64,000 nucleotides of DNA from Fidelibacterota bacterium (GCA_945903705.1 CAMDOZ010000003.1:642-64641); one strand, 5' to 3'; positions 3,861 through 30,075 are shown, counted from the stretch's first letter. Made by a program: numbers and translations. The notes: generated by a model not told the origin, from the letters alone.

Positions 3861-4345
3861 TGCCGAACGCCGTTGAAATCCGCCGCGCCCCTGCGGTGGC
3901 GGCCGCCCTTCAGAAGGGCTTCACCCTCCTCGAAATGCTGGTGGTGCTTGTCATCATCGGCCTTCTGGCCGGCCTTGTCGGTCCTCAGCTGATGGGCCGG
4001 GTCGATACATCCCGCCAGACCGCCGCGGACACCCAGAGTCGAATGTTGAAGAGCGCCCTCGATACGATGCGGCTCGACATCGCCCGCTATCCCACCAAGG
4101 AAGAAGGCCTCGTCATGTTGGTGAACGCGCCCGCGGACGAGCGCGTGGCGCGGAAATGGCGCGGGCCCTATCTCTCCGAATCGTTGCCCGCGGACCCTTG
4201 GGGGAATCCGTACCAATACGAGCCGATTTCATCGACCGTGGTCGCCCTTTACAGCCTCGGCGCCGACGGAGAACCGGGCGGCGAGGACATCAACTCCGAT
4301 GTCGGCCTCCTGCCGAAGTCGGCAGCCGCCAATGCAGCGCCCTAA
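3860..4345 (+). CDS. gspG: Type II secretion major pseudopilin GspG
   Basis: ATG overlaps the gspF stop (TAATG). Prepilin motif KG/FTLLEMLVVLVIIGLLAGLV. GspG-like core: WRGPYL, DPWGNPYQY, LYSLGADGEPGGE. Confidence 0.9.
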   Translation: MPNAVEIRRAPAVAAALQKGFTLLEMLVVLVIIGLLAGLVGPQLMGRVDTSRQTAADTQSRMLKSALDTMRLDIARYPTKEEGLVMLVNAPADERVARKWRGPYLSESLPADPWGNPYQYEPISSTVVALYSLGADGEPGGEDINSDVGLLPKSAAANAAP

Positions 4346-4868: not shown

Positions 4869-4871
4869 GCG

Positions 4872-5369: not shown

Positions 5370-5977
5370 GCCGCGGCTTTACGCTCCTCGAAGCCCTAGT
5401 GGTGCTCGTCATCACTGCCCTCATCTCCGTCGTGCTCGTCCAGGGGCTGGGTCTTCTTCTGGGGGCGCGCACCAGCGTGCAGAACAGACTCGTCGAGGTC
5501 GACGAAGCCGTTATCGAGCAAAGTCTTTTTTTGGAGCCTTTGCGGGGCGTCGTTCCCGACTATAACGAGCGGCCGCATACTTTCGTAGGCGAAGTCAAAC
5601 GCCTGCATGGGATGACGACGCGCCCCCTGCAAGGGCGCTCGGGAACACCGGTGCCATTTACCCTGACGATCAGCTTCGATCCTTCGCGCGACCAGAGCAC
5701 TCTCATGTATCAGGAAGACAACGCCCCGCCTCTTCCGCTCGGATCTTGGCAAGGCGAGACGGGGACCTTCGCCTACCGCAACATGACGGGCGCGTGGCGG
5801 GAAGCCTGGCCGCCCGAAGACGATCCGCAGGCGCCGCAGACGCCATGGCTGATCCGGTTCGAGCGAGGAACAGGGTTTCCCAAAAACCTGGTCGCGAGCG
5901 TCAACGGCACCCATCAACGTCCCTTGCGCTTTCGCGATACGCCTTTTGGCGTCGACTCCTTTACGGCCCCCCGCTAG
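5366..5977 (+). CDS. gspJ: Minor pseudopilin, GspJ-like
   Basis: Motif MSRG/FTLLEALVVLVITAL. 203 aa. ATGA overlap with the upstream gene. Confidence 0.7.
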   Translation: MSRGFTLLEALVVLVITALISVVLVQGLGLLLGARTSVQNRLVEVDEAVIEQSLFLEPLRGVVPDYNERPHTFVGEVKRLHGMTTRPLQGRSGTPVPFTLTISFDPSRDQSTLMYQEDNAPPLPLGSWQGETGTFAYRNMTGAWREAWPPEDDPQAPQTPWLIRFERGTGFPKNLVASVNGTHQRPLRFRDTPFGVDSFTAPR

Positions 5978-6123
5978 CACGGCGCAAAAACGTCAGCTTA
6001 TTAAGCAATTACAAATGTTTGGCGCCTGGGTCTGACAATGATTTAACGCCCACTTCAATCCTGCGCCGATAGTATCTGCGGCGCTGCCACACAATTCTCT
6101 CGCTTTGGGCCTGCCGACATTCT

Positions 6124-7299
6124 TTGCCTGTCGGCGTGCCTTCGGGTTGGGATGAGGTTTCAGGCGTGTCTATTGAGTCCACACAGTCGAGCGGCTCGCC
6201 GCACGCGCAAGCACGAGGGTTCATCCTCGCGCTGACGCTGTGGGTGATTGCGCTGTTTGGAGTCGGTGTCGCTGCCATTAATAGCTGGGTCTCGATGGCA
6301 ACGGAGAACGCCCGCACCTTGCGCTCGCGCGTGGACGATGAAATCGCGCTTTCGAATGCCAAGAGTGAGATCATCTATGCGCTCGCCACGCGCCCCATGA
6401 CTCATCGCGGGCTGGAGGTCGGGTCGGACCTCAAGCGGCCGACCACCGACGACATGTTCATAAGTATGGCGCAGGCAGCCCAGGAAACGTCCGGCTTCAT
6501 TGCATTCGATCGCCGTCCTTATGTGATGGAAAGCAATCCCGACTATGCGATTCAAATTCAGGACGGCCGGGGCCTGGTCAACTTGAATCGGATCCAGCCG
6601 CCGCTCTTGCGCCGCCTATTTGCGTTTTACGATGCGCCGGAAGTCCTCCGGAACCAGCTGCCGGACACGCTACAGGATTGGATCGACGAAGATGACTTGA
6701 CGCGCATTGCCGGCGCGGAACGGTCCGACTATGAACGCCTTCGGCGGGTGCCCCCTAGCGACGCCCGGCTCGTGACGCCCATGGAGGCGCAGAACATCCT
6801 CGGATGGGACGAAATCCCGCAGATGTGGGAGGACGACTTTCGCGCGCCCATCTTCTCGACGTGCGCTGCAGCCGGATTCAATCCGAACACCGCGCCGGAA
6901 GCCTCGCTTCTCGCGCACATGCCGGGCCTTACAGAAGACGGCGCCAAGTTCGTCGTCGATCAGCGCCGGGTGAGTACCTTTCGCCACGCCCGCGAATTCA
7001 TGGACGCGGCGAACGTCACGGTCCCCAACGAAGCCTTCTTCTTCGGCACGTCGCCCGGCAGTTGCATGGTGATCGATTTCGTCAATCGCAATACCGCGGA
7101 ACGTACCCGCGTTTCTCTTACTCTTGTAGATCGCAGTGAAAATCAGCCCTGGCAGGTGGACTATGCTTTCCGAATCCCTTCGCAGTACAGCGGGGCGCTT
7201 GACGGGCTCGATCCGCAGCTCACTTTCCCAGCCCCCGAAACGCTTTATTCAGTCGACGACTCAGCTCTTGCACCTTCCGGGCTCCGACAGGCGCCCTAA
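6124..7299 (+). CDS. gspK: Type II secretion minor pseudopilin GspK
   Basis: N-terminal ARGFILALTLWVIALF (pseudopilin-like, lacking Glu5, as in GspK). GspK-type segments: ERSDYERL, LVTPMEAQNILGW, FNPNTAPEASLLAHMPGL (helix-hairpin-helix-like). The start (TTG 6124 or GTG near 6166) is uncertain. Confidence 0.8.
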   Translation: MPVGVPSGWDEVSGVSIESTQSSGSPHAQARGFILALTLWVIALFGVGVAAINSWVSMATENARTLRSRVDDEIALSNAKSEIIYALATRPMTHRGLEVGSDLKRPTTDDMFISMAQAAQETSGFIAFDRRPYVMESNPDYAIQIQDGRGLVNLNRIQPPLLRRLFAFYDAPEVLRNQLPDTLQDWIDEDDLTRIAGAERSDYERLRRVPPSDARLVTPMEAQNILGWDEIPQMWEDDFRAPIFSTCAAAGFNPNTAPEASLLAHMPGLTEDGAKFVVDQRRVSTFRHAREFMDAANVTVPNEAFFFGTSPGSCMVIDFVNRNTAERTRVSLTLVDRSENQPWQVDYAFRIPSQYSGALDGLDPQLTFPAPETLYSVDDSALAPSGLRQAP

Positions 7300-8281
7300 C
7301 TGGATCCTCAGCCGCCGCTTCGTGCGGCAGAACGTCTTTGAAGTTTCCGAGAGCCTGCCCGAATCGAAACGCAAGCTGGCGCTCTCCCTCTTGGTGCGCA
7401 AGTGGTCGCCGTTTGTGTCGAGCCAATTTGCCGCGCAATGGGTCGGACACCGTGCCTGCGTATATGCCTGGGACGGTGACGCGGTTGCCACAGCCATTAC
7501 AGCGGCCGGCGAAAGCCCCCAACGATGCACCATTTGGCCCGAAACATTTTTCCGCGCACCCCTGCAGGACGGCATCCGTCTTGCACAGATGTGCGATGGC
7601 GTCGAAGGGCAGGTCTGGAGAAGCGGCTTGCTGGTCGCCACGCGTTGGTGGCCGGCCTCTCCAGCACCGCGCGACTGGGCAGGGTTCTTGCGCGCGGCCG
7701 GGATTGACCTCAGCCAAGCTTCGTTCGACGTGCCCGCGGCCGTGGAAAGCGAAATCCTCGCGCTTCCTTGGACGGTCGTCAGCGCTCCCGTTACCGATTT
7801 ATGGAGCCTGCTTCAGAACGAACGCGCCGCCGCAATTGCCGCAACGGTGGTTGCCGTACCATTTCTCTATTACCTGACGCAGTCGGCCGTGCTCCTGGCG
7901 GGAACGATGCGCGTCGAGGCAGCTATTGCCGATCTAACCGCGGCGAACCAGACCATTCGTACCGACCGGACGGCCGCCTTTACCAATCTCGAAAATGTCG
8001 AAACCTACCTTGGCCTTGAAAACTTTCCGTCGCAGTTCGAGACCATGAACGTGATCACCGGCTTGCTTCGCGAAAGCAAAGTCTCGCTGGCGGAATGGAA
8101 CTTCGACACCGGAAATCTGCAACTTGTCATACAAGCCGACCGCCCGCTCGAAGCGCCCTTCTTCATCGAAATGTTCGAAAAGAGCGACCATTTCTCGAAT
8201 GTGAGCGCCACCGTTGGAAATCAACAGCGAGAACTTCGCTTGACCATGTCGGTCGAACCGCGGCAATGGCCGACGTCATGA
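7163..8281 (+). CDS. GspL-like T2SS assembly protein (bitopic: cytoplasmic domain, one TM segment, periplasmic domain)
   Basis: Position after gspK. About 230-aa N-terminal domain, TM segment AAAIAATVVAVPFLYYLTQSAVLLAG, about 120-aa C-terminal domain. AGGTGGA lies before ATG 7163. GTG 7136 and GTG 7322 are alternative starts. Confidence 0.55.
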   Translation: MLSESLRSTAGRLTGSIRSSLSQPPKRFIQSTTQLLHLPGSDRRPNWILSRRFVRQNVFEVSESLPESKRKLALSLLVRKWSPFVSSQFAAQWVGHRACVYAWDGDAVATAITAAGESPQRCTIWPETFFRAPLQDGIRLAQMCDGVEGQVWRSGLLVATRWWPASPAPRDWAGFLRAAGIDLSQASFDVPAAVESEILALPWTVVSAPVTDLWSLLQNERAAAIAATVVAVPFLYYLTQSAVLLAGTMRVEAAIADLTAANQTIRTDRTAAFTNLENVETYLGLENFPSQFETMNVITGLLRESKVSLAEWNFDTGNLQLVIQADRPLEAPFFIEMFEKSDHFSNVSATVGNQQRELRLTMSVEPRQWPTS

Positions 8282-8922
8282 TGAAATCTTTCCCGACGCT
8301 TCAGAAGTTGCTGGACCGCCTGCGCGCCGAGTCGCGCAGTAGGATCGGCCATGACATTGTGCTGACCGATCGCCTCAAGGCCATGCTGTCCGTTGCCGTC
8401 GCGCTCGTCGTGCTTGCGGCTCTGATCGGAATGCACCAGACGGTCTCGTCGTTCGAACGCGATTACGAACGCGTACAGATCGACAAGGCGCGTTTGGAGG
8501 CCCAGATCAAAGCTGGCGGCTGGCAAGAGCGAAAGCAGCAGAGCCAAGTCCTAAAATCTCTCTTGGAGGAACGGCTCTGGGCCGCGCAGACCCCGGGGCT
8601 TGCCGACGCAGGCTTCGAAAGGTGGCTGCGTGACCGCATGTCTCCGCATAAGCTGGAGCCGATCGCGCAGATTCAAGTTCGGCGCGTTCCGCTCGTGCGG
8701 CAGGTGCAACCGGGCGAACAGCCAACCCCGCTCTCAACCGTTCAGCGCATGACGGCGAAGCTGATCCTTCCGTTCGAGAGTGCGGGACTATCGCACTTCT
8801 TGGCAGACATCGCCGAGGCGGATAAGGCCGTGGTTGTCGATCGTTTGATCGTGCGCGCGGGACGAAATGCACGTATCGAGATGGACGTGTCCGCGTTCTA
8901 CCGTTCTTCCGAACGGAATTGA
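8278..8922 (+). CDS. GspM-like T2SS protein (N-terminal TM anchor, periplasmic domain)
   Basis: ATG overlaps the upstream stop (ATGATGA). TM segment LKAMLSVAVALVVLAALIG near the N-terminus. Size and position fit GspM. No strong sequence motif. Confidence 0.55.
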   Translation: MMKSFPTLQKLLDRLRAESRSRIGHDIVLTDRLKAMLSVAVALVVLAALIGMHQTVSSFERDYERVQIDKARLEAQIKAGGWQERKQQSQVLKSLLEERLWAAQTPGLADAGFERWLRDRMSPHKLEPIAQIQVRRVPLVRQVQPGEQPTPLSTVQRMTAKLILPFESAGLSHFLADIAEADKAVVVDRLIVRAGRNARIEMDVSAFYRSSERN

Positions 8923-8934
8923 GGAGCCTCGCGG

Positions 8935-9453
8935 GTGGATCGTATTCTGACGCAGATCTTGGAGAGGCTTGGCGCTCTTCGGCCCTACGCGACCCATCTC
9001 GGCGCGTTGGGAATCGCCATTCTTTTCGGTTTGATCGTCGCGGTATTTAAGGTTTCGGGCAGCCCTCCTGCCGTGGACACGGCTGACCGCTGGCCGTTTC
9101 CGCAATGGGCGCCATTCCGCGCGGGCCCGCAGCGGGAAGTGCTCGCGCGGAGCACCCTATGGGCAGAAGATCCGACAAAAGCAAAAGTGGTCGTCGAAAA
9201 GAAAGTGGAAGGGCCGCCTTGGCGCTTCATCGGTACTTTTCAGGAAGGCGATACACGCATGGCAGTCATCGAACTTGATCAGGGAAAGCGCATTCAGCGC
9301 GTTGGCCCCGGTCAACCGCTGCCGAACGGCGCGTTGATCAAGACGATCGACACGAGTGTCCTCACCTATGACGAGAATGGCATCGAAAAGGCCCTGAAGC
9401 TCTTCGGCCTGACAAAAACTGACAACCTAGCGGCTGGAACTGGAAAGAACTGA
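8935..9453 (+). CDS. GspC/PilP-like secretin-interacting protein (TM anchor plus HR-type beta domain)
   Basis: GTG start. TM segment LGALGIAILFGLIVAVF. C-terminal WRFIGTFQEGDTRMAVIELDQGKRIQRVGPGQPLPNGALIKTIDTSVLTY resembles the GspC HR / PilP fold pattern. Lies immediately upstream of the secretin. Confidence 0.55.
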   Translation: MDRILTQILERLGALRPYATHLGALGIAILFGLIVAVFKVSGSPPAVDTADRWPFPQWAPFRAGPQREVLARSTLWAEDPTKAKVVVEKKVEGPPWRFIGTFQEGDTRMAVIELDQGKRIQRVGPGQPLPNGALIKTIDTSVLTYDENGIEKALKLFGLTKTDNLAAGTGKN

Positions 9454-9457
9454 GCGT

Positions 9458-11593
9458 ATGAAAAAATCATCGCAGAAGCGTCAACTGCTTACCGCTTGCC
9501 TCGCGATCGGAGGAGCCATGGTAATTCTGGCGAGCTGCTCGTCCCGGGTACCTTCGAGAATACCGCCTCCGTTGCCCGTGCCAAAGGCCGCCGATAGGGC
9601 CGGATTTACTGTTGCTGAAGGATCGGGGGAAACCGCGGGCCCCACGGAGATGAAAGTGACGGCTGGGCCTACGGTTCCACTCGGCAAGGGGACGACCGAG
9701 CCACTACTTTCCTCGGCCCTCCCTCACCTCACGGGTGAACCGATCAGTGTCAACTTCGACGGCATTCGCCTGCCCGCCTTCATCAATACTGTATTCGGCG
9801 AACTCTTAAAGCTTACCTTCGAAATCGACAGCACCGTGGCGGCGCGCGATCAAATGGTGACTCTGCGTACGGCCGGACCGCCCCTGTCACGCGACGAATT
9901 CTTTGGTCTCGTAGCCGAAGTTCTCAAGAACTACGGCATCAGCATCGTTTATTCGAACAACGTGTATCGGATCGTGGAGTCCGCAACCGTCAAGAAACCA
10001 ATTCCGCGTATCGTACGCACGCGCACGGCGTCGAATGTGCCGGCTGACTTGCGCCCGATATTCTATTTCCAGACCGTGCGAGCCATTTCAACCCAAACGA
10101 TGATGAGCTGGCTAAACCTGATCATGGGCGATCGGGTTACGCCGATGCCCTTGCTGGGCGCCAGCGGAATTGTACTGCTGGGGAGCCCGTCGGACGTGGA
10201 GGCGGCGATAGAAGTCATGGAAACGCTCGATCAGCCGTTTCTGGCCGGCAGCCAAAGTCTCAAAATTTCGCCGGCGTTCTGGAGCGCGCAGAAACTTGCA
10301 GAGCAACTCGCGAGTATTTTGACGGCGGAGGGTTATAGCATCGCGTTGGGTGGGCAGGCGGCGAGCTCGATCAAGATGCTCCCCGTCGAGGCCTTGAACG
10401 TCATCATCGTCTTCGGAACGTCCTCTGAAAGCCTGCAACATCTCTTGCAGTGGGCCACCGAACTCGATCAGCCAAGTCAAAAAATCGGGACCCAAGGCGT
10501 CTACTATCACCAAGTCCTCAACACGAAGGCGTCGGAAATCGCGACCACGGTCGGCTCAGTCCTGGGCGTGGGCGGCATAGGCGGCGCCCAGCAGCCGGCC
10601 AGCGGCGGAGTGACCTTGGCGACTGACTTACCTGCGACCGCACAACCAACGACGGCCACAGGAGGCGCGCGGGGCTCGCAGCGCCTTATCGTCGATGAGC
10701 CTCGCAACGGGATCCTCTTCGTCGGTACCGCCGAAGAGTTCGCGCAGTTCAAGGCACTTGCCGTCCAAATGGATCGAGCGCCCTTGGAAGTCCTGATCGA
10801 AGCGACGATAGCCGAAGTGACGCTGAGAGACAGTGAAGATCTTGGCATCGTACTGGACTATGACGACGGAAGAGCCACAGCGCCGAATCGAACCGTCGTT
10901 CAAGCCGACGAAGGCGGCATATTCTTCAGCCTCATCCGCGACCGCGCGTCCATCCTGGCCCGCGTCAACGCCCTCGCCGACTTCAATCGCCTCCAGGTCC
11001 TGTCGAGCCCGCGCATCGTCACGAGTAGCGGCAAGCAAGCCGCCATCAACGTGGGAACGCAGGTCCCCATTATCACGGCCCAGGAATCCTCGAGTGGTAC
11101 GGTTGGCGGCAATACGTCGATTCTGCAGTCGATTCAGTACCGGACAACCGGCGTGTCCCTCAGTATCGAGCCCACCATCAATTCGAACCGGCGGGTCGAG
11201 CTGACGGTGCAGCAGGAGGTGAGCGCCGCGCAGGAAAACAACCTGTCGTCCGTCCAGAGTCCGGTGATCATCAACCGTTCGATCAGCACATCGTTATCGC
11301 TGAACGACGGTGAAACCGTCCTGCTGGGCGGCATGATTTCAGAGAACTTCAGCGCAGGCCATACAGGAGTTCCATATTTGAAGGACATCCCACTGCTCGG
11401 CAATCTGTTCAAGTCGGGTTCGGAATCTGTCAATCGAACGGAATTGATCGTTCTGATTACGCCTTATATTATCGACGGACCCGAAGGAGCGCGGCAAGTA
11501 CGCGACGCCTTCCGCGGCAAACTTGGTGAATGGGCGCAACCGCTGGCCGAACCGGCGCCGGCCGCGGTCCCCGTCGCTTCACCTCAACAATAG
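9458..11593 (+). CDS. gspD: Type II secretion secretin GspD with a lipoprotein signal peptide (liposecretin-like)
   Basis: 711 aa with N0/N1-type domains. Secretin signature: VPYLKDIPLLGNLFK, RTELIVLITPYII. N-terminal lipobox ILAS-C at about residues 23-27. Confidence 0.92.
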   Translation: MKKSSQKRQLLTACLAIGGAMVILASCSSRVPSRIPPPLPVPKAADRAGFTVAEGSGETAGPTEMKVTAGPTVPLGKGTTEPLLSSALPHLTGEPISVNFDGIRLPAFINTVFGELLKLTFEIDSTVAARDQMVTLRTAGPPLSRDEFFGLVAEVLKNYGISIVYSNNVYRIVESATVKKPIPRIVRTRTASNVPADLRPIFYFQTVRAISTQTMMSWLNLIMGDRVTPMPLLGASGIVLLGSPSDVEAAIEVMETLDQPFLAGSQSLKISPAFWSAQKLAEQLASILTAEGYSIALGGQAASSIKMLPVEALNVIIVFGTSSESLQHLLQWATELDQPSQKIGTQGVYYHQVLNTKASEIATTVGSVLGVGGIGGAQQPASGGVTLATDLPATAQPTTATGGARGSQRLIVDEPRNGILFVGTAEEFAQFKALAVQMDRAPLEVLIEATIAEVTLRDSEDLGIVLDYDDGRATAPNRTVVQADEGGIFFSLIRDRASILARVNALADFNRLQVLSSPRIVTSSGKQAAINVGTQVPIITAQESSSGTVGGNTSILQSIQYRTTGVSLSIEPTINSNRRVELTVQQEVSAAQENNLSSVQSPVIINRSISTSLSLNDGETVLLGGMISENFSAGHTGVPYLKDIPLLGNLFKSGSESVNRTELIVLITPYIIDGPEGARQVRDAFRGKLGEWAQPLAEPAPAAVPVASPQQ

Positions 11594-11600
11594 GTTACAG

Positions 11601-12686
11601 ATGTTGAATTTACTTTCTCGCACGCTTCTTGCATTCGCCTTGCTTGTCGTATCCGCGGCTCATGGAGCGGAAGTCGCCCCGTTGCCGCGATTTACGCCAG
11701 ACGATGTGGAACAACTCACCATCGCCCAGCTGGACACGCGCACCGCAACGGGAGATTTGAAGGCCCAAGCCGAGCTTGGAGCGCGCTACGCGCGCGGCGC
11801 CGGGGTCACGGTCGACCTAAAGAAGGCGGTGTCGCTGTTCGAAGCTGGCGCAAAGAGAAACGGAGCGAACGCGCAATACTATCTTGGCACGGCCTACTCT
11901 ATGGGCGTCGGCGTGAAGCAGGATCCGAAGCAAGCGGCACGGTGGTTTGGGAAAGCCGCCGCGCAAGGGCATGCCGGCGCGCAATACTCGCTCGGCGTCA
12001 TGATGGCTACGGGAGAAGGCGGCCTTAAGGCCGACCCCAAGAAAGCGGCTGATCACGTCCTGAAGTCCGCCGAACAGGGTTTCGTCCTGGCCGCCTTCAG
12101 GATGGCTCAGCTTCATATAGCGGGCTTGGGAGTCGCACGAGACACTGAACGAGCGGCCGATTGGTATCGGCGCATCCTCAAGACCCAAGACCACCCTCCC
12201 TCGACCGCCGGCCTCGTCGTCCTCATCGAAACGAGAGAGGCGACATGGCAGCCTGGGGATCCCATTAACCAGCCCCCACCCTTGGCTAAGGAGGAGGCTC
12301 CCGCACAGGTCGCCGAAATCGCGCCCCCCGTTATGACGGGGCCCATCACGGCGGCTGCCCCCGACACGACCTTAAGTCTCTTGCCCGACGAGCAGGAGAC
12401 CATGACGTCATTCAAGACAGAACAAGGGCCGACGATCGAGGCGAGGACGAGAGCGGGCGCCCTTACGCTTTTCAGCACCTCGGACAAACCGCTTTCTTGC
12501 CAGATCGGCGTCACGTTCAGTTACCTTGAGAAGGACGGCGTGAGAACGCCGGGCACTTTCCTCTGCTTTCAGGCGGCCATGCGGGTCGGCCAGAAGGTGC
12601 AGGTTTGCGACGTCGTGAATCGCAACTTCGTGCAAACAAAAGTCGAAAAGATTGAGCTCACGAAATGCAGCACGCTCACGCCGTAA
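11601..12686 (+). CDS. Secreted Sel1-repeat (TPR-like) protein with a C-terminal domain of unknown family
   Basis: Signal peptide MLNLLSRTLLAFALLVVSAAHGA. At least four Sel1-type repeats (AQAELGARYARGAGV, AQYYLGTAYSMGVGV, AQYSLGVMMATGEGG, AAFRMAQLHIAGLGV). Starts 8 nt after the gspD stop. Confidence 0.85.
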   Translation: MLNLLSRTLLAFALLVVSAAHGAEVAPLPRFTPDDVEQLTIAQLDTRTATGDLKAQAELGARYARGAGVTVDLKKAVSLFEAGAKRNGANAQYYLGTAYSMGVGVKQDPKQAARWFGKAAAQGHAGAQYSLGVMMATGEGGLKADPKKAADHVLKSAEQGFVLAAFRMAQLHIAGLGVARDTERAADWYRRILKTQDHPPSTAGLVVLIETREATWQPGDPINQPPPLAKEEAPAQVAEIAPPVMTGPITAAAPDTTLSLLPDEQETMTSFKTEQGPTIEARTRAGALTLFSTSDKPLSCQIGVTFSYLEKDGVRTPGTFLCFQAAMRVGQKVQVCDVVNRNFVQTKVEKIELTKCSTLTP

Positions 12687-12706
12687 CGACTTCTGCGATT
12701 TGACCG

Positions 12707-12937
12707 ATGTCCAACCAATTGATCATCACACTGCTGGTGCTCGCGGCCGAAGTCGGATTGTTCGTACTTTGCGTCATTGTTTCACGCAGGCCGATTGATC
12801 CGCTGAAACCGCGATTGATCCCCTACAACATCATCATGATCTTTCTCGCAGTCGCGATCTTCGCGACTGCGGCCCACGTCATCAGCCTCTTGACCGGTCA
12901 GCAGTTGATGCCGCGTCAGCGCAAAGGGATGCGTTAG
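12707..12937 (+). CDS. Small two-TM membrane protein, unknown function
   Basis: 76 aa with two hydrophobic helices and a basic C-terminus. Followed by a long hairpin. Confidence 0.55.
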   Translation: MSNQLIITLLVLAAEVGLFVLCVIVSRRPIDPLKPRLIPYNIIMIFLAVAIFATAAHVISLLTGQQLMPRQRKGMR

Positions 12938-12950
12938 CCGAGCGATTCCC

Positions 12951-12997
12951 GGCACACGATCGGATCGGATTGAATCAATCCGATCCGACCGTGTGCC
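12951..12997. terminator. Long near-perfect palindrome (22-nt arms, 1 mismatch); probable terminator of the gsp-side transcription unit
   Basis: GGCACACGATCGGATCGGATTG / AAT loop / CAATCCGATCCGACCGTGTGCC, followed by GTTTTAG. Confidence 0.55.
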
Positions 12998-13126
12998 GTT
13001 TTAGATAATTAGGGCGCGATTTAACGAAAAACCGCTGCACACTTCCCGCCTTCGCTAAAGCTTCGGCGGGCCTTGAGTACATAGGTCCTCCGAAGCCGCA
13101 AGGCGAAGGAGGATTGCTATCGCGCC

Positions 13127-13738
13127 CTATCGTACTGGGACATTGGGTTGGACGGATTTCGTAGCTGTGGTCCACCCCATGGCCGTATCGAGAATGGCGT
13201 GCAAGACGGCCTGGTGCCCGGTTTCGACAAAGCCGTAAACCGCCGAATTGACGAAGAAGTTCACATCACCCAGCCGGCGAAGATCATTGTCCGGAGAAAA
13301 GCCGCTGAGCGTGATCACTTCGCACTTGAGGTTCGCCGCGGCGCGAGCGGCGTTCAGGATGTTCTTCGATCCGCCGGAGCTCGAGATCGCGATGAGCACG
13401 TCGCCGGCGAAAGCCTGCATCTCAACCTGCTTGGCAAAGACCTGATCGTATCCCAGATCGTTGCCAAGGCACGTCAACGACGAGGCGTCGTTGAATGTCA
13501 CGGCGCGGACGCCGCCGTTCTTCGCAAAATCGATCGCAAGGTGTCCTGCTATCCCGGCCGAGCCGCCATTGCCCACGAACATCACCTTGCCCGTGCCCCT
13601 CGCGACACGTCGCATGGAGTCGTGCACGCGCACGATACCGGCGTCCACGGCAAGTGCCGCGCCCTGCCGATCGGTCACAGTGACGGACTTCAGCGTGTCG
13701 AAGAAAGTTTGTACGTAATCGGCATAAGAATTTGACAT
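13127..13738 (-). CDS. gmhA: SIS-domain sugar-phosphate isomerase, GmhA (sedoheptulose-7-phosphate isomerase) family
   Basis: Motifs KVMFVGNGGSAGIAGHLAIDF and DVLIAISSSGGSKNIL are typical of the GmhA/DiaA SIS family. About 203 aa. Confidence 0.8.
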   Translation of the reverse strand: MSNSYADYVQTFFDTLKSVTVTDRQGAALAVDAGIVRVHDSMRRVARGTGKVMFVGNGGSAGIAGHLAIDFAKNGGVRAVTFNDASSLTCLGNDLGYDQVFAKQVEMQAFAGDVLIAISSSGGSKNILNAARAAANLKCEVITLSGFSPDNDLRRLGDVNFFVNSAVYGFVETGHQAVLHAILDTAMGWTTATKSVQPNVPVR

Positions 13739-13953
13739 GTGATCATCGAGCCTTTGCAACCCAATATATAATCTTCACGTAGGCCGTTTAACAAGTTATG
13801 AGCGCGCCGATGCCCGGCCGACCACCGCAATATCGTGTGGGGCACGGGCTTGTGATAGGCACACCCTGCGCTCCCAGCGCCATCCATGGCCATTTGGCAA
13901 GGCTGGTTTTGGCGCGGTATAGTCCATTGGTAATAACGTAACTTCGATTGGCC

Positions 13954-14346
13954 ATGTACGAAAAAGTAACGCGCGACATTTCGGTATCGGTGAGGTCCTT
14001 CTACCTTGAGGAACAGTCCTCGCCTGACGAGGATCACTTTGTATGGGCCTACAAGGTCAATATCCAGAACCGCGGCAACGATACGGTCCAGCTACTGAAT
14101 CGTCACTGGCGGATTACCGATAAGCTCGGGCGCCTTCAGGAGGTGCGCGGCGCCGGTGTCGTAGGAGAACAGCCCGTTCTGAAACCAGGTGAATCCTTCG
14201 AATATACCAGTGGCTGCCCGCTCGAGACTCCCTCCGGCATCATGGCGGGCTCGTATCAAATGTCGACGGCCAGCGGCGAGCGTTTTGAGATTGAAATTCC
14301 TGCTTTTTCCCTCGACAGCCCCTATGATAACGCCGCGATAAATTAG
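13954..14346 (+). CDS. apaG: ApaG (DUF525) protein
   Basis: FVWAYKVNIQNRGNDTVQLLNRHWRITD...GEQPVLKPGESFEYTSGCPLETPSGIMAGSYQM matches the ApaG family pattern. Confidence 0.9.
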   Translation: MYEKVTRDISVSVRSFYLEEQSSPDEDHFVWAYKVNIQNRGNDTVQLLNRHWRITDKLGRLQEVRGAGVVGEQPVLKPGESFEYTSGCPLETPSGIMAGSYQMSTASGERFEIEIPAFSLDSPYDNAAIN

Positions 14347-19695: not shown

Positions 19696-20268
19696 ATGAC
19701 GGAACCACAACGCCCCGCTCGAAAGCGCCCCGCTGGCCCGCGCAAGATGACGCTCTCGCGCTTGGAGAACATTGCGCGCTACTACATCGAGCGCTTTGCC
19801 ACGACGTCGGCTCACCTGCGCAGGGTCCTTGTGCGGCGGGCCGAACGCGCACGGCGCGTGCATGGCGGCGACCTCTCGGAGATCGCCGGATGGATCGATC
19901 AGGTGGTCGAGCGCCTTGTGCGTCTAAGTCTGGTCGACGATGCAAGGTATGCGGCGGACCGCGTGGCCTCGTTGCGGCGGCTTGGGCGAGGCCCCGGTCG
20001 CATCCGCGCACTCCTCGCGGCGAAAGGCGTACCGCGCGCCATGATCGAGCGCATTTTGCAGGAAACGTCCGAAGACTCATCCGGCGAAGATGCGAGCCTC
20101 GCCGCGGCCGTGGCCTACGTCAAACGCCGACGCTTCGGGGCGTTCGGGAAACCGCCCGCCGACAAGCTCGAGCGCGCTAAGAAGCAGGCACGGGAACTCG
20201 GCGCTCTCGGCCGAGCGGGCTTTTCCTTCGCTGTTGCGCGCCGCGCGCTCGCGAGCGAGCCCGACTAG
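19696..20268 (+). CDS. recX: RecX family regulatory protein
   Basis: Helical repeats with LENIARYYIERFATTSAHLRRVL and VDDARYAADRVASLRRLGRGPGRIRALLAAKGV. Start uncertain (19657 or 19696). Confidence 0.8.
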   Translation: MTEPQRPARKRPAGPRKMTLSRLENIARYYIERFATTSAHLRRVLVRRAERARRVHGGDLSEIAGWIDQVVERLVRLSLVDDARYAADRVASLRRLGRGPGRIRALLAAKGVPRAMIERILQETSEDSSGEDASLAAAVAYVKRRRFGAFGKPPADKLERAKKQARELGALGRAGFSFAVARRALASEPD

Positions 20269-20270
20269 AT

Positions 20271-20792
20271 TCAGCGACGCAAGGCGAGGACCTCGTTCTC
20301 CGAACGCACGCGCACATAGAGAGCGGCCGCGTTCAAGATCGAAAAAAGTGCTGCGACCGTCCAGGCACCGAAGACAAGCGGCAACACCGCGATCTCCAGC
20401 ACGACAACGAGATAGTTCGGGTGACGGAGGAAGCGGTACGGACCGCGCCGAATGAGGGGAGCATCAGGCAGCGTGATGATCCGCGTCGTCCAATACGGCC
20501 CCAAGGCCCACAGGATCCAGAGTCGCGCAGCCTGAAGACCTACGAATACCATAAGAAGCGGAAGACTGATGCGCAGCGCATGCATCGCCACCCACGCCGT
20601 CAGGGCGATCAGCCAGCCGGCATGGAGCAGAACGATAAAGGGATAGTGTGACGCTCCCACCTCGACCGCGCCCCGGGCTTTGAGCTCGCGCGTATTACGA
20701 TTGGCGATCACCAACTCCCCGAGGCGCTGACCTGCGACCAGGCCGAGGATGGCATAGGCAAACCAATGCGGAACGGCGATGGTTCCCATCAT
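20271..20792 (-). CDS. Isoprenylcysteine carboxyl methyltransferase (ICMT)-family membrane methyltransferase
   Basis: Multi-TM. Motif RRGPYRFLRHPNYLVVVLEIAVLPLVFGAW. Starts 4 nt after the type III PKS stop. Confidence 0.85.
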   Translation of the reverse strand: MMGTIAVPHWFAYAILGLVAGQRLGELVIANRNTRELKARGAVEVGASHYPFIVLLHAGWLIALTAWVAMHALRISLPLLMVFVGLQAARLWILWALGPYWTTRIITLPDAPLIRRGPYRFLRHPNYLVVVLEIAVLPLVFGAWTVAALFSILNAAALYVRVRSENEVLALRR

Positions 20793-20796
20793 GGAC

Positions 20797-21915
20797 TCAG
20801 CCGAGGTCCAAAAGGCACATGGCCGCCGAAAAGCCGGGGCCCAGCGCCGTCATCATCTGCAAACCACGCTCCTTCGCCGCAAGTGTGCGTTCGAGCACGG
20901 CGAGGACCGTGACAGCCGACATATTGCCCCGTTCCGCAAGAACCGCGCGCGCATGGCCCAGGCTTCCGGGCGCGAGATCGTAAGCACCTTCGAGCGCTTC
21001 AAGCACCTTCTCCCCGCCCGGGTGAACGATGAGTCCACGAAGATCCTTCTGCGCGAGGCCGCATCTGCCGAGGAACGCGTCAGTGACCGGCCGAAGCTGG
21101 GTGCGCACGAGGTGCGGGATGCTGCGCGAAAAGATGACGCCAAGGCCGTCGTCTTCCACCCGCCAGCCCATGATGTCGCGGGTTTCCGGCCATGTGTATT
21201 CGCCCCACGCGCAGACGCGCGCCAGCGAGGGCGCATCGTCACCGGCGCCGTCCGCACGCAGCAGAACGGCCGCGGCCCCGTCGCCGAAGATCGCCGTGGC
21301 GACGATGTTCTGCTTGCTGTCATCGGCTGACCGAAAGGTGAGTCCGCACAGCTCGACGCAAAGGAAGAGAATCCAGCGGCCGGGCATCGCCCGCGCCAAA
21401 GCCGATGCGCGCGCGAGGCCGATCACGCCGCCGGCGCAACCGAGCCCGAAGACCGGGAGCCTTTCGACCGTGGGCGAAAGCCCAAGGGGCCCTTGCAGGA
21501 GCGAATCAAGGCTGGGTGTGGCGATGCCTGTCGAGGAGACGGTGACCGTCGCAGCGATATCCTTCCCGGAAACTCCGGCCGCACGCAGAACGTCCCGCCC
21601 CGCCCCCGTCAGCAGGCGAAGCGCGTGCTCTTCATAGAGCCGGGTGCGTTCCGGCCAACCGTGCGGTTCGCTGTACCATGAGAGTGGAACGCAGGAATAA
21701 CGCGTGCGAACACCTGCGTTTCCGTAGGCCGAGGCCATACGCTGCATGAGATCCGGGTTATGGCCGAAAATGCGCCCTGCCGCCTCGAGGGCATCCTGCT
21801 GCGTGAAGCAGTAGGGCGGGTAGGCCGTGGCCACGGCGGCGACATGCACGGGCGGCTGGCCGGCCTGCGTGGTCGGGCGGCTCAGGGGAAGCGTCGTGTT
21901 CGATGCGATGAGCAT
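20797..21915 (-). CDS. Type III polyketide synthase (chalcone synthase superfamily)
   Basis: Cys-His-Asn triad contexts: FGLGCAGGV, IVHPGGEKVLEAL, RGNMSAVTVL. C-terminal GPGFSA. Confidence 0.92.
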   Translation of the reverse strand: MLIASNTTLPLSRPTTQAGQPPVHVAAVATAYPPYCFTQQDALEAAGRIFGHNPDLMQRMASAYGNAGVRTRYSCVPLSWYSEPHGWPERTRLYEEHALRLLTGAGRDVLRAAGVSGKDIAATVTVSSTGIATPSLDSLLQGPLGLSPTVERLPVFGLGCAGGVIGLARASALARAMPGRWILFLCVELCGLTFRSADDSKQNIVATAIFGDGAAAVLLRADGAGDDAPSLARVCAWGEYTWPETRDIMGWRVEDDGLGVIFSRSIPHLVRTQLRPVTDAFLGRCGLAQKDLRGLIVHPGGEKVLEALEGAYDLAPGSLGHARAVLAERGNMSAVTVLAVLERTLAAKERGLQMMTALGPGFSAAMCLLDLG

Positions 21916-21921
21916 AGGTGT

Positions 21922-22386
21922 TCAATGCTTCGAGATATCTTTGGTTCCGGCGGGCAAGGCACAGGGCACAGCGGGCACGGCCGGATCGATCGGAAGATCA
22001 CATGCAAGGGCTTGATGTTGCAGGACGGGCTTTAGGCGCCCGGTCAGAAAATTCACGAGACCCGACGCGCCTTCGGTAGCGCAAAAGCTCCAGCTTAGAA
22101 ACGGTCCGTCGTTCGGGGCGAAATCCACGATCTCGGGCGTGGCCGCCAAAAGACGCACCGCGGCGCCCAGGTCGGTTGAAAAGCCTGCCCGCAGCCATTG
22201 CGGACGCACGCCGAGATGCCACAGCAGATACAGACCGGGCTGTCTTGCAAGCTCGCGGGAATCGAAGTGCATCAGGCGCGGATAGTTTCCGCCCGCGGGG
22301 CTCCAAACCATCGCCGTGCCTTTGTCCCGCGCGGGTGCGAGCGCGCCGGCGAACCGCTTGAAGACGCCCGGCACTTTGTCCTTCAT
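21922..22386 (-). CDS. Hypothetical 154-aa protein, translationally coupled within the PKS operon
   Basis: ATGA overlap with the upstream PAP2 stop. Stops 6 nt before the PKS start. No motif I can name with confidence. Confidence 0.6.
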   Translation of the reverse strand: MKDKVPGVFKRFAGALAPARDKGTAMVWSPAGGNYPRLMHFDSRELARQPGLYLLWHLGVRPQWLRAGFSTDLGAAVRLLAATPEIVDFAPNDGPFLSWSFCATEGASGLVNFLTGRLKPVLQHQALACDLPIDPAVPAVPCALPAGTKDISKH

Positions 22387-23069
22387 GGGGTGCGAGCCTC
22401 CGCGGGCCGCAGCAGAAGCCGCGCCAGCAGCGTATTCACGATCAGGATGAAAGCGCCTGCGAATACGACATCGCTGAGGAAATGCGCACCTTGTATGACG
22501 CGCACGAGACCCACAGCACCTCCGCACACAAGACCCGCCAAGACACCGCGCCGGCGCCATTCGGGCGGGAGCAGGAAGCCATAAGCGGTCATCCAGAAGG
22601 CAAGAGCGGCGTGGCCGGAAACGAATGCGCAATTGTGCGAGCATTCCTGCGCGATCCACCCCGGCGGCGTAAAGGCGGCCTCTCCGCCGAAGAAAACCGT
22701 GTCGTTCGGACGCGCACGTCCCCAATGGGACTTGAGGAACGTCTCGACGAGGAGGCCGGGCCCGACGACGAGGGTGGCGAGGAGATAGGCCATGTTCCGG
22801 GTCGTCATCTCGAGGAAGGACTGCCGGAACAGCAGGCCCGCGATCCACAGGAGAAGGCAGAATGCGAACGTGCCGATGATGATGACGGGCACCGCTTCGC
22901 GCACGAAGCCGAGGAATATGCCCCGGTCCCAGAAGAAGCCGTCACCCTCGGCGTAAAACAATCGGCTGAAGGCCAGGTCGAGGCCTGGGACAAACATCAA
23001 GAGGCAGAGCGCGGCCATCGCCCAGCGCTCCGGGTGCTCGCGCACGTCGCGCGCTATGCGTTCCACCAT
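22383..23069 (-). CDS. PAP2-family membrane phosphatase (lipid phosphatase type)
   Basis: PAP2 motifs KSHWGRARP, SGHAA, VIQGAHFLSDVV. Multiple TM segments. Start taken at MVERIARD. Confidence 0.85.
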   Translation of the reverse strand: MVERIARDVREHPERWAMAALCLLMFVPGLDLAFSRLFYAEGDGFFWDRGIFLGFVREAVPVIIIGTFAFCLLLWIAGLLFRQSFLEMTTRNMAYLLATLVVGPGLLVETFLKSHWGRARPNDTVFFGGEAAFTPPGWIAQECSHNCAFVSGHAALAFWMTAYGFLLPPEWRRRGVLAGLVCGGAVGLVRVIQGAHFLSDVVFAGAFILIVNTLLARLLLRPAEARTP

Positions 23070-23071
23070 CG

Positions 23072-24178
23072 TCAGCCGTCCTCGCGATGGAAGAGATAGG
23101 CAAGCCCCAGCAGCCCGGCGACAGCCGTCGGCGCCCAGGCGGCAAGCCCCAACGGCAGCGTCGCGGAGAGACCGAGCGCGTAGGTGAAGCGGCTGAAGAA
23201 GTAGAACAAGAACCCCGTGGCCACGCCGGCAATTCCTCGCGCCGTCCATCCGGCGAGCCGTGCATTGGAGGTGAGAAAAAACACCGAGGCGACCAGCACC
23301 ATCGCGCAAAGGAGGAAGGGCGTGGCCAGAAGCGAATGCCAGTAAAGCCGATGCGGCAGAGCCGAAAAGCCGGAGCTGCGCGAGAAGCGAATGAATTCCG
23401 GCAGCTCCCAGAACGAAAGCGTTTCCGGAGGTGCAAAACTGCTCTCCACCTGTTCAAAGGTCAGCGCCGTCGGGAGATCCAGCGAATCGCGAAACACGGA
23501 CGGACGGCCCGGTTCCATATCCCAGACATTCTGCAGATGGAATTGGCCGCCGACGAGCTGACCACCCTCTGCATTGTACCGGCCCTCCAGTTTCTCGCTG
23601 GTGTCCGTTCTGAAGATCGAGACATCCGTGAGATGCAGCGTTCCGCCGTCCTGACGTACCGTGGCCGAGTGCACGACAATGCCGCGGTTGTCGCGCTCCT
23701 CCCGCAGCCACAGGCCCGCTTTCCCAATATTGAGGCTCGCCGCGTTCTTACGCAGCAGGCTCTGGTCCATGCGCTGGTAGCTCTCGTACATGGTCGCCGC
23801 CAGGGGATCGACGGCGGTGAGGTTTACGACACCAAGGAGGCCGGCCAAAACGAGAGCCGGCGCCAGGAACTGCCAGACCGACACTCCTGCCGACCGCATG
23901 ACGACCAGCTCGTGGCTGCGCGACAATCGGAACAGGGCAAACATCATCGCGATCATGACGGTGAAGGGCAGCACCGCCTGCACGGTATGGGGCATCTTCA
24001 GGAGCGCCATGCCGATGACCGTGCTGAAGGCGAGATTTTCGTCGCCGACGGCACGGCGCATCAGCTCGATAGTGTCGAATAAGAGAATGAGCCCCGAGAT
24101 CACGGCCAACAGGCCGAGAAAGGACAGGATGAAATGCTGGCCGAGATATAAGGAGAGCGTGGGCGCGACGCGGTTCAC
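23072..24178 (-). CDS. lptG: LptF/LptG (YjgP/YjgQ) family permease
   Basis: 368 aa. N-terminal LSLYLGQHFILSFLGLLAVISGLILLFD, a central periplasmic beta-jellyroll-size domain and C-terminal TM segments. No partner lptF is adjacent. The F versus G assignment is tentative. Confidence 0.8.
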   Translation of the reverse strand: MNRVAPTLSLYLGQHFILSFLGLLAVISGLILLFDTIELMRRAVGDENLAFSTVIGMALLKMPHTVQAVLPFTVMIAMMFALFRLSRSHELVVMRSAGVSVWQFLAPALVLAGLLGVVNLTAVDPLAATMYESYQRMDQSLLRKNAASLNIGKAGLWLREERDNRGIVVHSATVRQDGGTLHLTDVSIFRTDTSEKLEGRYNAEGGQLVGGQFHLQNVWDMEPGRPSVFRDSLDLPTALTFEQVESSFAPPETLSFWELPEFIRFSRSSGFSALPHRLYWHSLLATPFLLCAMVLVASVFFLTSNARLAGWTARGIAGVATGFLFYFFSRFTYALGLSATLPLGLAAWAPTAVAGLLGLAYLFHREDG

Positions 24179-24265
24179 GGCCTATGCCTATTTGGGTTGC
24201 GCGCCTTCGCGCGCTAGCTTTTTCCGAGGCGCGGAGCGTAACATCGGGCACTTCATGGGGGAACC

Positions 24266-27688: not shown

Positions 27689-29392
27689 GTGTCCGCGCCT
27701 CTCTCATCGATCGACAGTGCGGATTCCCGGACGGACTCTTTGCTCAGTGCAATGATTTCGGGAAGTAGCCTTCGGGCCTACACGATCCTGACCTTGCTGT
27801 GCGCGCTTCTGTACCTGCCTGGCCTCACATCGATCCCGCCCACGGACCGCGACGAAGCGCGCTTCATGCAGGCCACGAAACAGATGATTGAAACCGGCGA
27901 CTACATCAACATTCATTTCCAGGACGAGCCGCGCAACAAGAAACCCGCCGGGATTCATTGGCTGCAATCGGCCGCCGTCAAAATCGCCGGCCAGGACCTC
28001 ATCACGTATTGGCCTTATCGTCTTCCCTCTGTCCTTGCAGCGTGGTTCGCGGTGCTCTTGTGCTGTGCCGTAGGAACACGGCTGTTCGACCGAAAAACCG
28101 GTTTCATTGCCGGCCTGGTCCTTGCCACCAGTTTCATGGTGGTGATCGAGGCGCATATCGCCAAGACGGATGCAATGTTGCTCGCGGCCACGACCGCCGC
28201 CATGGGCGCGCTCGCCATCATGTACAACACGCTACAAGGTCAGCGCGTGGGCATTGGCTTCGCGCTTCTGTTCTGGATCAGCCTTGCTGTGGGAACACTT
28301 GTAAAGGGCCCGGTGTCACTAGCCGTCGTGATCGTGACGGTCGTAACCCTCGCGATTACCGACAAACGAATCGCGTGGCTAAAGCAGACACGTCCTCTGT
28401 TGGGATTCCCTCTCGCGCTCGCGCTCACGCTACCGTGGCTGCTTGCGACTTCGGCAAGCGAAGGCGGGAACAACTTCATCGTCGAAGCAGTCCGCGGCGA
28501 TCTCATCCCGAAGCTCATCGGCGGCCAGGAAAGCCATGGCGCTCCGCCGGGCGCCCACCTCGCCGCGAGTCTCATCACGGCCTGGCCTTGGTCTCTGTTG
28601 GTTCCCTTCGTCCTCGTCTTCGGCTGGCGCGGGCGCGCGGTGCCTGTGGTTCGCTTCTGCCTCGCATGGCTCATCGGCACCTGGGTGTTGTTCGAAGTCG
28701 TGCCTACCAAGCTGCCTCACTACACCCTGCCGGCGTTTCCGGCCCTTGCGCTGCTGATCGCCCTCGCGGTGCAGAGCGAGAGTCTGCACACACTCATGCA
28801 AACAGTGTCAGGCCGGATCTATCGCGGGCTCTGGGGCTTGATCACCCTTGCGCTCGGAGGCGGAATCATTTTCGCCAGCCGGACCTATGGCGCGGACGAT
28901 TTGGCCGCCGCCGGCCTCACGGCGGCCGTACTCACCGCCAGCGCCGCCGTTGCGTTGGTGGAGTGGCGTAGCACGAGACCTCTCGCCTTCATGGCCGCCG
29001 CGGCGGTCGCGTTCACGGCGCTCCTTTCGGCGGGCGTGATACCGCGCCTGAACGATCTCGCCGTGAGCACCCGCCTCGCCGCGGCCATCGCGCCCTACAA
29101 GATCGCGTCCGGCCAACCGGTGGCGATGGCCGGCTATAGCGAGCCGTCGGCAGTCTTCCTTCTGGGAACAGATACGATCCTAACCAGCACCGCCAGCGTC
29201 GTGGACTACCTGCTCACGCATCCCGGGGCCGTCGGAGTGATTGAAGCCGCTCAGGTCGAAGAGGTCACACGCGCTGTCGCGGGAACCGGTGGACTTCGCA
29301 AGCTCGCGGATATCGAAGGCTATAATTATTCGCGCGGGGATCCCGTGGCCTTGAGCGTCGTCACCATCGCGCCGCCGGAAGCACAGCCATGA
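27689..29392 (+). CDS. ArnT-like glycosyltransferase (GT39/GT83 fold, undecaprenyl-phosphate-sugar dependent)
   Basis: About 12 TM segments. N-terminal loop motif PTDRDEARFMQATKQMIETGDY. GTG start. Confidence 0.85.
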   Translation: MSAPLSSIDSADSRTDSLLSAMISGSSLRAYTILTLLCALLYLPGLTSIPPTDRDEARFMQATKQMIETGDYINIHFQDEPRNKKPAGIHWLQSAAVKIAGQDLITYWPYRLPSVLAAWFAVLLCCAVGTRLFDRKTGFIAGLVLATSFMVVIEAHIAKTDAMLLAATTAAMGALAIMYNTLQGQRVGIGFALLFWISLAVGTLVKGPVSLAVVIVTVVTLAITDKRIAWLKQTRPLLGFPLALALTLPWLLATSASEGGNNFIVEAVRGDLIPKLIGGQESHGAPPGAHLAASLITAWPWSLLVPFVLVFGWRGRAVPVVRFCLAWLIGTWVLFEVVPTKLPHYTLPAFPALALLIALAVQSESLHTLMQTVSGRIYRGLWGLITLALGGGIIFASRTYGADDLAAAGLTAAVLTASAAVALVEWRSTRPLAFMAAAAVAFTALLSAGVIPRLNDLAVSTRLAAAIAPYKIASGQPVAMAGYSEPSAVFLLGTDTILTSTASVVDYLLTHPGAVGVIEAAQVEEVTRAVAGTGGLRKLADIEGYNYSRGDPVALSVVTIAPPEAQP

Positions 29393-30075
29393 CGTCCGAT
29401 CCGCTTCACCGCACTCTCGCGCTCTGGGGCGTTGCGACCGCGGTGATCATTGTCGCACTTATTCAGTGGATCGATCTTCCGATCGCATCCTTCTTTTACG
29501 CGCACCGCGAAACGACGTGGGTTGCCTTCTTCGCGGCCATCACCGACTTCGCGAACGGCGCCATCTGGTATTCCGTGGCCCTTATCGGCGTCGGCACGGC
29601 GGCATTCCGGCACTCGGCGCGCACAAAGAATCCGAACCCTGCGCGTCTGCGTCAGGAAGTCCGGGCCTGGCTTTTCATGGCCGTGTCCATGCTGAGCTCC
29701 GGTATTCTCATCAATGCCATGAAATTCGCCATCGGCAGGCAACGGCCGCGCTTCCTCTTTGCCGAGGAAAGCACGTCCGGTTTTTACCCCTTTGCGTTGG
29801 CGATCGCCGACAGCAGTTTCCCGTCAGGTCACACGCAGTCGATCTGGACGGCGATGCTGGCGCTGTCCTTTCTCTTCCCGCCGTTGCGGCCGGTGTTCCT
29901 GGCGATTGCAGCCACGATCGCGCTTAGCCGGATCGTCGTCGGCGCTCACTTTCTTGCCGATGTCGTCGTAAGCGTCTTCATCGCGTTTGCTACGGTGCTC
30001 TTGTGGCGGCGATGGTTCACGCGCGAGGGGGTTTCGCTCGCCCTGATCGAACAGCGCCCGATCAAGGCTTCTTGA
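29389..30075 (+). CDS. PAP2-family membrane phosphatase (lipid A phosphatase-like)
   Basis: ATGA overlap with the ArnT-like gene. Motifs KFAIGRQRP, PSGHT, SRIVVGAHFLADVV. Confidence 0.85.
   Translation: MTSDPLHRTLALWGVATAVIIVALIQWIDLPIASFFYAHRETTWVAFFAAITDFANGAIWYSVALIGVGTAAFRHSARTKNPNPARLRQEVRAWLFMAVSMLSSGILINAMKFAIGRQRPRFLFAEESTSGFYPFALAIADSSFPSGHTQSIWTAMLALSFLFPPLRPVFLAIAATIALSRIVVGAHFLADVVVSVFIAFATVLLWRRWFTREGVSLALIEQRPIKAS

Follow-up and report, generated by a model that had tools for sequence, protein, structure and literature searches.

A type III polyketide synthase and methyltransferase gene pair behind lptG and an LpxF-like phosphatase gene in an uncultured alphaproteobacterial lineage

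Five packed genes and their products

Our subject is a 64,000 nucleotide stretch of DNA, referred to here as the window, assigned to a Fidelibacterota bacterium (GCA_945903705.1, CAMDOZ010000003.1:642-64641). On the minus strand, from position 24178 to 20271, five tightly packed open reading frames join lptG, encoding a permease for lipopolysaccharide (LPS) export, and a gene for a PAP2 phosphatase to genes for a type III polyketide synthase (PKS) and an ICMT-family methyltransferase. The remaining gene, in the middle of the array, encodes a 154-residue protein. On balance, we lean towards the following explanation, which is also the simplest. A single capture placed a portable phenolic-lipid cassette behind lptG and the genes for the phosphatase and the 154-residue protein, and inheritance since then has been vertical, in many members with junctions of the translational-coupling type. 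Co-transcription would then make the lipid a constitutive component of the cell envelope. The capture is best placed in the common ancestor of a single clade of 'Rhodospirillaceae', uncultured bacteria of water and sludge. The cassette would consist of a type III PKS and an ICMT-family O-methyltransferase, of the BpsA/BpsB, SrsA/SrsB or DquA/DquB type. The features of the locus are as follows.

24179..24265, between the divergent genes pduO (plus) and lptG (minus): pduO-lptG spacer, 87 nt, presumed operon promoter region
23072..24178, minus strand: lptG, LPS export ABC transporter permease, 368 amino acids, GTG start (Pfam, NCBIfam TIGR04408)
22383..23069, minus strand: PAP2 membrane phosphatase, LpxF-like, candidate lipid A 4'-phosphatase, 228 amino acids (Pfam, motifs)
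21922..22386, minus strand: conserved soluble 154-amino-acid protein with a possible GIY-YIG-like fold (homologues, AlphaFold, Foldseek)
20797..21915, minus strand: type III PKS, alkylpyrone/alkylresorcinol synthase type, 372 amino acids (Pfam, Pks11 alignment)
20271..20792, minus strand: ICMT-family integral-membrane methyltransferase, BpsB/SrsB/DquB-like, 173 amino acids (Pfam ICMT)

An earlier note on this DNA had described a packed five-gene array on the minus strand, and all of the boundaries it gave can be read directly in the sequence. Briefly, lptG starts with GTG at 24178 and stops with TGA at 23074-23072. The phosphatase gene starts 2 nt further on (ATG 23069). Its stop codon overlaps the start of the 154-residue gene in the sequence ATGA (22386-22383), a gap of -4 nt. 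The latter gene stops with TGA at 21924-21922 and, after 6 nt, the PKS gene begins (ATG 21915). The PKS stop codon (TGA, 20799-20797) is followed, after 4 nt, by the methyltransferase start (ATG 20792). Separate gene calls, for public contigs with an identical PKS, list the same five genes and start the methyltransferase one codon later (ATG 20789). The earlier note took tight packing on one strand to imply one transcript. From the 2, -4, 6 and 4 nt junctions we infer the same, with the promoter probably in the pduO-lptG spacer.

The flanking genes are oriented differently. Upstream of lptG, 87 nt away, is a divergent gene for a PduO-type adenosyltransferase. Downstream of the methyltransferase gene is convergent recX, and the two stop codons are 2 nt apart (20268-20271). 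This leaves no space for an intervening terminator hairpin. Hence, the 3' ends of the two transcripts must overlap. Between positions 19500 and 25000, a promoter scan found no match to the sigma-70 consensus; candidates from a terminator scan of the same interval were near the number expected from shuffled sequence, with none at any gene junction. An Rfam scan of the whole window found no RNA family match. Inside the pduO-lptG spacer is a GC-rich palindrome, GCGCGCGAAGGCGCGC (24199-24214). Parts of the spacer are shared by the nearest clade. The palindrome is an insertion with respect to the nearest relatives, but a near-identical copy is found in the same spacer of one other locus (L030). It may represent a short repeat element or serve as an operator.

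The PKS matches Pfam models Chal_sti_synt_N (80.6 bits) and Chal_sti_synt_C (48 bits). The nearest solved structure is Pks11 of M. tuberculosis, an alkylpyrone synthase (E 4.6e-45). The triad of Pks11 aligns with Cys160, His298 and Asn331, and 12 sequences from the lineage show no variation at these residues. Homologues of the PKS carry the JGI label 'alkylresorcinol/alkylpyrone synthase'. NCBIfam also suggested DpgA, but a score of 143 bits, where the cut-off is 425, led us to reject this identity. The methyltransferase is a small multi-pass protein, with hydrophobic segments, that matches Pfam ICMT (PF04140) at 99.2 bits, where the cut-off is 24, and PEMT at 30 bits. The known products of type III PKS and ICMT pairs are O-methylated long-chain alkylpyrones or alkylresorcinols, and these change the properties of membranes (PMC9827899; PMC6274091). 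Note that a Trp/Gly sequence predictor of cyclisation failed for DquA (PMC9827899). Hence, prediction of a pyrone or resorcinol product was dropped.

The first gene product matches Pfam LptF_LptG over its full length (214 bits). It also passes the cut-off (240) of the NCBIfam LptG equivalog model TIGR04408, with 254.8 bits over model positions 1-350 of 351. The score against the LptF model, 84.3 bits, is far below this. With approximately six hydrophobic segments, the protein has normal LptG length and topology. The second gene product has five hydrophobic segments, scores 56 bits against Pfam PAP2, and has all of the PAP2 motifs (KX6RP, SGH and RX5HX3D) intact, as K113SHWGRARP, S151GH and R190VIQGAHFLSD. 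Its best NCBIfam model is LpxF (NF045633), matched end to end with 122.7 bits. This does not reach the equivalog cut-off of 400, so we call the protein LpxF-like rather than LpxF. In six relatives, a gene for a PMT_2/ArnT-like glycosyltransferase lies between lptG and the phosphatase gene. Judged by its family assignments, the upstream half of the operon is LPS-related: LptG, an LpxF-like phosphatase and, in some relatives, an ArnT-like glycosyltransferase. The Pfam and NCBIfam matches also confirm the identities previously given to the permease, PAP2 protein, PKS and ICMT protein.

The window contains another such pair, 3.5 kb from lptG. Here, a plus strand gene for an ArnT-like PMT_2 glycosyltransferase (27689-29392) overlaps, by 4 nt, that for a second PAP2 phosphatase (29389-30075, plus strand). 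The best NCBIfam model for the glycosyltransferase is lipid IV(A) L-Ara4N transferase (114 bits, below the cut-off). The two genes are kept in nearly all loci of the lineage and look like a second lipid A-type modification pair.

Conservation and inheritance of the locus

We compared relatives using three anchors. For the first, one genome per GTDB species was scanned with the signature of the 154-residue protein. This gave 34 loci, all in uncultured metagenome-assembled genomes labelled Rhodospirillaceae, a few evidently mislabelled. Note that, having been chosen on the gene for the 154-residue protein (abbreviated unk below), this set cannot test that gene's own association; the second and third anchors partly compensate. 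In 34 of the 34 loci, and as far as each contig extends, the genes follow the order lptG ... pap2-unk ... pks-icmt on one strand. It is part of a collinear block of about 15 genes: pap2b-arnT-hbd-etfAB-pduO, then lptG to icmt, then recX, then abc2-argD-argF. Junctions of 2, -4, 6-7 and 3 nt occur in seven of the nine nearest loci. Exceptions are L011, L013 and L014, each off at one junction, and L015, which leaves its contig. In a second clade, the junctions are start/stop overlaps of -4 nt. Nine loci have two genes for alpha/beta-hydrolases between the 154-residue gene and the PKS gene. Such tandem genes, for proteins of about 265 residues each and no specific family, occur in one sub-clade (L026, at 10592-12178, L028, L031, L034, L035, L039, L041 and L125). 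In a marine locus (L043, from TARA), the interval between the ICMT gene and abc2 (5595-14098) contains genes for an MFS transporter, an MMPL/RND-type transporter with a TP_0789/DUF1329-like partner, and proteins without a Pfam match. These genes, absent from the window, may serve lipid export.

The second anchor was a scan of metagenome contigs with a PKS profile, giving 80 loci. In 18, where the PKS is 62-69% identical, the context is the same as in the window. In the other 62, where it is 50-56% identical, no lptG, PAP2 or 154-residue gene is nearby (62 of 62, of which 27 have 3 kb or more of sequence upstream). The neighbours in this outgroup are instead recG, mfd and genes for an MFS transporter, a DUF502 protein, an aminotransferase and a protein with an SLT domain (lytic transglycosylase family). 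The ICMT gene is directly downstream of the PKS gene in all 57 outgroup loci with room for it, and in the lineage. The third anchor was LptG homologues; the three that were looked up (3/3) occupy the same slot beside pduO. The earlier note had named non-conserved adjacency as grounds for dropping its proposal. Adjacency is conserved, in the 34 genomes and in contigs with a PKS at least 62% identical. The same comparison speaks against joining the PKS-ICMT pair to the permease and phosphatase as one route, as that note did: the pair is self-contained, and stands alone in 62/62 outgroup loci.

Next consider sequence divergence. Across 27 loci of the lineage, pairwise identity of the PKS averages 0.72, with a minimum of 0.60. 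Comparison means are 0.71 for pduO, 0.75 for abc2 and 0.76 for argF; LptG (0.61), PAP2 (0.56) and ICMT (0.59) are lower. Divergence of the PKS tracks that of etfAB and hbd (Spearman 0.72). Identity resembling that of core genes, together with this correlation, points to vertical inheritance under purifying selection. Hence, within the lineage, the PKS appears vertically inherited, unlike a patchy secondary-metabolite gene.

Three loci have lost parts of the array. L050 has pduO, then pap2-unk-pks, a gene for a PhyH dioxygenase and icmt, with no lptG. L025 (9971-11035) has lptG-pap2-unk-icmt; there is no PKS gene and the ICMT gene directly follows that for the 154-residue protein. L126 (11383-14584) has lptG, a glycosyltransferase gene, pap2, unk and a hydrolase gene, then an IS110 transposase gene in the place of the PKS-ICMT pair, and no PKS. 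These variants indicate that parts of the operon are separable. The most constant pair is the PAP2 gene and the 154-residue gene. Since L025 retains ICMT without a PKS, strict dependence of the methyltransferase on the PKS is not certain. The dioxygenase of L050 (9132-10337, 401 residues) is a PhyH-family Fe(II)/2-oxoglutarate enzyme, encoded between the PKS and ICMT genes; L029, L045 and L046 have a similar gap, of about 1.4 kb, at this point. It is plausible that the dioxygenase is a tailoring hydroxylase for the phenolic lipid.

Such observations bear on a second account. In this, the juxtaposition is incidental: the cassette landed once behind lptG-pap2-unk and stays there through regional synteny, with transcriptional read-through possible and no physiological link. 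We consider this a serious possibility, if a less probable one than functional capture. Gene order from pap2b/arnT through argF is the same in all relatives, unrelated housekeeping genes included, and in the 62 outgroup loci the cassette sits by itself beside unrelated genes. It also occurs in Gram-positive bacteria, which have no Lpt system (PMC9827899). Furthermore, insertions (hydrolase, PhyH dioxygenase and glycosyltransferase genes) and the losses in L025, L050 and L126 are those of separable parts. Conversely, two clades have overlaps or gaps of 2-7 nt, which could hardly persist unless co-expression were selected for. Nearly every member of the lineage has kept the PKS, whose conservation is that of a core gene, and the upstream partners are all envelope-lipid genes rather than random neighbours.

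We favour capture followed by vertical inheritance and co-expression, and several points weigh against it. Synteny extends over all 15 genes of the neighbourhood, so conserved adjacency says little by itself about shared function, and would not single out the five genes. The arrangements in L050, without lptG, and in L025, without a PKS, also count here. So does the gap between the 154-residue gene and the PKS gene in other clades, which is 40-304 nt or filled by the two hydrolase genes. Hence, an internal promoter is possible in those clades. In the window, the argument for co-transcription is one of gene spacing, the promoter and terminator scans being uninformative. Turning to the products, the phosphatase score is so far below the LpxF cut-off that lipid A is no more than a candidate substrate. 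Whether the PKS makes a pyrone or a resorcinol lies beyond prediction from sequence.

The scheme that we favour would operate as follows, judging from knowledge of the families. In the cytoplasm, the PKS would extend a long-chain fatty acyl starter with malonyl-CoA, giving an alkylpyrone or alkylresorcinol. The membrane methyltransferase would O-methylate this product, which would then partition into the membrane. Separately, the PAP2 enzyme would strip a phosphate from lipid A at the periplasmic face, and LptG, with unlinked LptF and LptB, would extract LPS for transport. Hence the two halves of the operon would act on different lipids, and co-expression would be their link.

The permease and the 154-residue protein

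The earlier note regarded the permease as a special orphan, with no lptF adjacent. The second part of this is right. Using tblastn, no LptF/LptG paralogue was found in the window; the next 10 kb of the source contig to the left likewise gave none, and contained only TPR and type II secretion genes. Similarly, in 34 relatives there is no lptF within approximately 10 kb either side, and the flanks have one LptG each. Adjacency of lptF and lptG is usual, though no part of the LptG family definition. The idea of a special permease fared less well. As well as passing the equivalog cut-off, the protein has homologues, down to 56% identity, that carry the NCBI name LptG, and the gene keeps the same pduO-side slot throughout the lineage. 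Given the equivalog-level score and this constant slot, the permease looks like an ordinary housekeeping LptG, merely unlinked from lptF. If so, with co-transcription the phenolic lipid would be made constitutively, and be a standing component of the envelope rather than one of a resting stage only.

In the left part of the window (approximately 2646-13000; L129), and in the contig beyond, is a type II secretion cluster (T2SSF, T2SSG and secretin). Before it come genes for five large TPR-repeat proteins in a row.

A more specialised role had been proposed, in which the orphan permease and PAP2 protein export or remodel the PKS-ICMT lipid, perhaps during formation of cysts or resting cells. The missing lptF, and adjacency conserved in the lineage, would fit such a role, and phenolic lipids do build the cyst coats of Azotobacter (PMC9827899; PMC6274091). 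We nonetheless judge it very unlikely. The LptG model is matched from end to end, above its cut-off. Among the top 120 homologues, there is one LptG-like cluster per long-contig fingerprint (note that this set stops at 56% identity and would not show LptF). Between close relatives LptG is 87-92% identical, a housekeeping pattern, whereas the 154-residue protein is 55-61% identical. L050 retains the PKS module without lptG. Finally, no datum concerns cysts, and the lineage is uncultured. We found no gene or datum in support of a cyst or resting-cell link, and an Azospirillum cyst transcriptome paper mentions type III PKS in its reference list only. Neither cyst formation nor Lpt-mediated export, as previously suggested, found support.

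The 154-residue protein matches no Pfam or NCBIfam model, and distant members of its family likewise have no Pfam match. It has 49 full-length homologues and the signature WHLGVRPQW. In a library of 1.84 billion proteins, the family forms 224 clusters at 50% identity (P0290-P0436), with some members of about 116 residues and a core of W...GVYxIWHxGxxPxWVxVGxG...FVTWA. One member (P0406, 351 residues) bears an N-terminal MshEN domain. With no hydrophobic segments, the protein is predicted to be soluble. The AlphaFold model is confident (pLDDT 83.8) and its top Foldseek matches are to the GIY-YIG domain of UvrC, with probability 0.97 but an E-value of only 0.056, and TM-scores of 0.66 (target) and 0.41 (query). 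In 20 diverse family members, only W28, W56, G59, W99 and P145 are invariant; Tyr53 is kept among close homologues only. Of the Tyr, Arg, Glu and Asn expected at a GIY-YIG catalytic site, the Arg of helix 1 and the Glu are not conserved in the family. Because these catalytic residues are missing, a nuclease role was rejected; nor is there a match to Pfam GIY-YIG. We conclude, from its conservation, that this is a real protein of a hitherto undescribed family.

Could this protein be a bridge between the two halves of the operon? As an adaptor or regulator, it would tie the PAP2 protein or LptG to the PKS module in a single pathway. Its start codon overlaps the PAP2 stop codon, and in every locus of the lineage its gene comes after that for PAP2, between both halves. 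The gene is also absent from 62/62 outgroup PKS-ICMT loci. Yet the protein has no recognisable catalytic residues or known domain, and its gene stays with that for PAP2, rather than that for the PKS, upon hydrolase insertion or PKS loss. Of the explanations considered, we give this one the least credence.

A bolder form of the scheme can also be stated. Methylated phenolic lipids would be constitutive in this Gram-negative envelope, and their supply coupled to dephosphorylation and export of LPS. At its strongest, the Lpt system would deliver the phenolic lipid, or LPS modified with it, to the outer membrane, and the 154-residue protein would be the coupling factor. We think this improbable. 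What the arrangement suggests is that phenolic lipids are a permanent part of the envelope, without showing a new export route.

Known systems and possible meaning for the envelope

The distal gene pair resembles bpsA-bpsB of Bacillus subtilis, srsA-srsB(-srsC) of Streptomyces griseus and dquA-dquB of Sporomusaceae. In each, a PKS is followed by an ICMT-family membrane methyltransferase. Here, as there, the Cys-His-Asn triad is intact and the PKS and ICMT genes are kept as a unit; the resemblance is one of family and gene order. As in srs, there is a variable tailoring enzyme, the PhyH dioxygenase of L050 playing the part of SrsC between PKS and ICMT. Unlike in these systems, the pair comes last in an operon that begins with lptG and the gene for a lipid A-type phosphatase, and it behaves as vertically inherited core genes of a Gram-negative lineage. 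The arsABCD genes of Azotobacter vinelandii, which are cyst-specific and serve to make alkylresorcinols and alkylpyrones, encode two PKSs and a dedicated type I fatty acid synthase. In contrast, the locus in the window has one PKS, no fatty acid synthase, an ICMT methyltransferase, a housekeeping gene at the head of the operon and no cyst link that we could find.

The upstream half can be set beside known systems in the same way. As in the lptF-lptG operon, encoding part of the LptB2FG transporter, the first gene is an equivalog-level lptG, but a PAP2 phosphatase gene is next in place of lptF. Like pairs of LpxE/LpxF with ArnT/Rgt-type proteins, the phosphatase has LpxF as its best model, intact PAP2 motifs and, in the six relatives mentioned, an ArnT-like glycosyltransferase directly upstream. 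It differs from these in falling far short of the LpxF cut-off (123 bits against 400) and in its linkage to lptG.

The earlier note held that this combination of genes was undescribed. We agree, in that no paper in the searchable literature names both 'type III polyketide synthase' and 'LptG'. Nor was a description of LpxF-LptG linkage found there; the two names occur together only in two reviews. The components are known. What is new is how they are arranged, and that the PKS of a Gram-negative lineage behaves like a core gene.

Pairs of type III PKS and ICMT are usually seen as accessory and stage-specific, with roles in spores, cysts or antibiotic tolerance. In this alphaproteobacterial lineage, which is uncultured and widespread, conservation of the pair matches that of housekeeping genes, and the pair follows an essential gene for LPS export and one for a putative lipid A phosphatase. 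The locus also flags an uncharacterised family of small proteins that always accompanies the phosphatase. If expression follows gene order, phenolic lipids would be a standing component of the diderm envelope, alongside under-phosphorylated lipid A, and the locus provides a testable handle on the role of such lipids in Gram-negative membranes.

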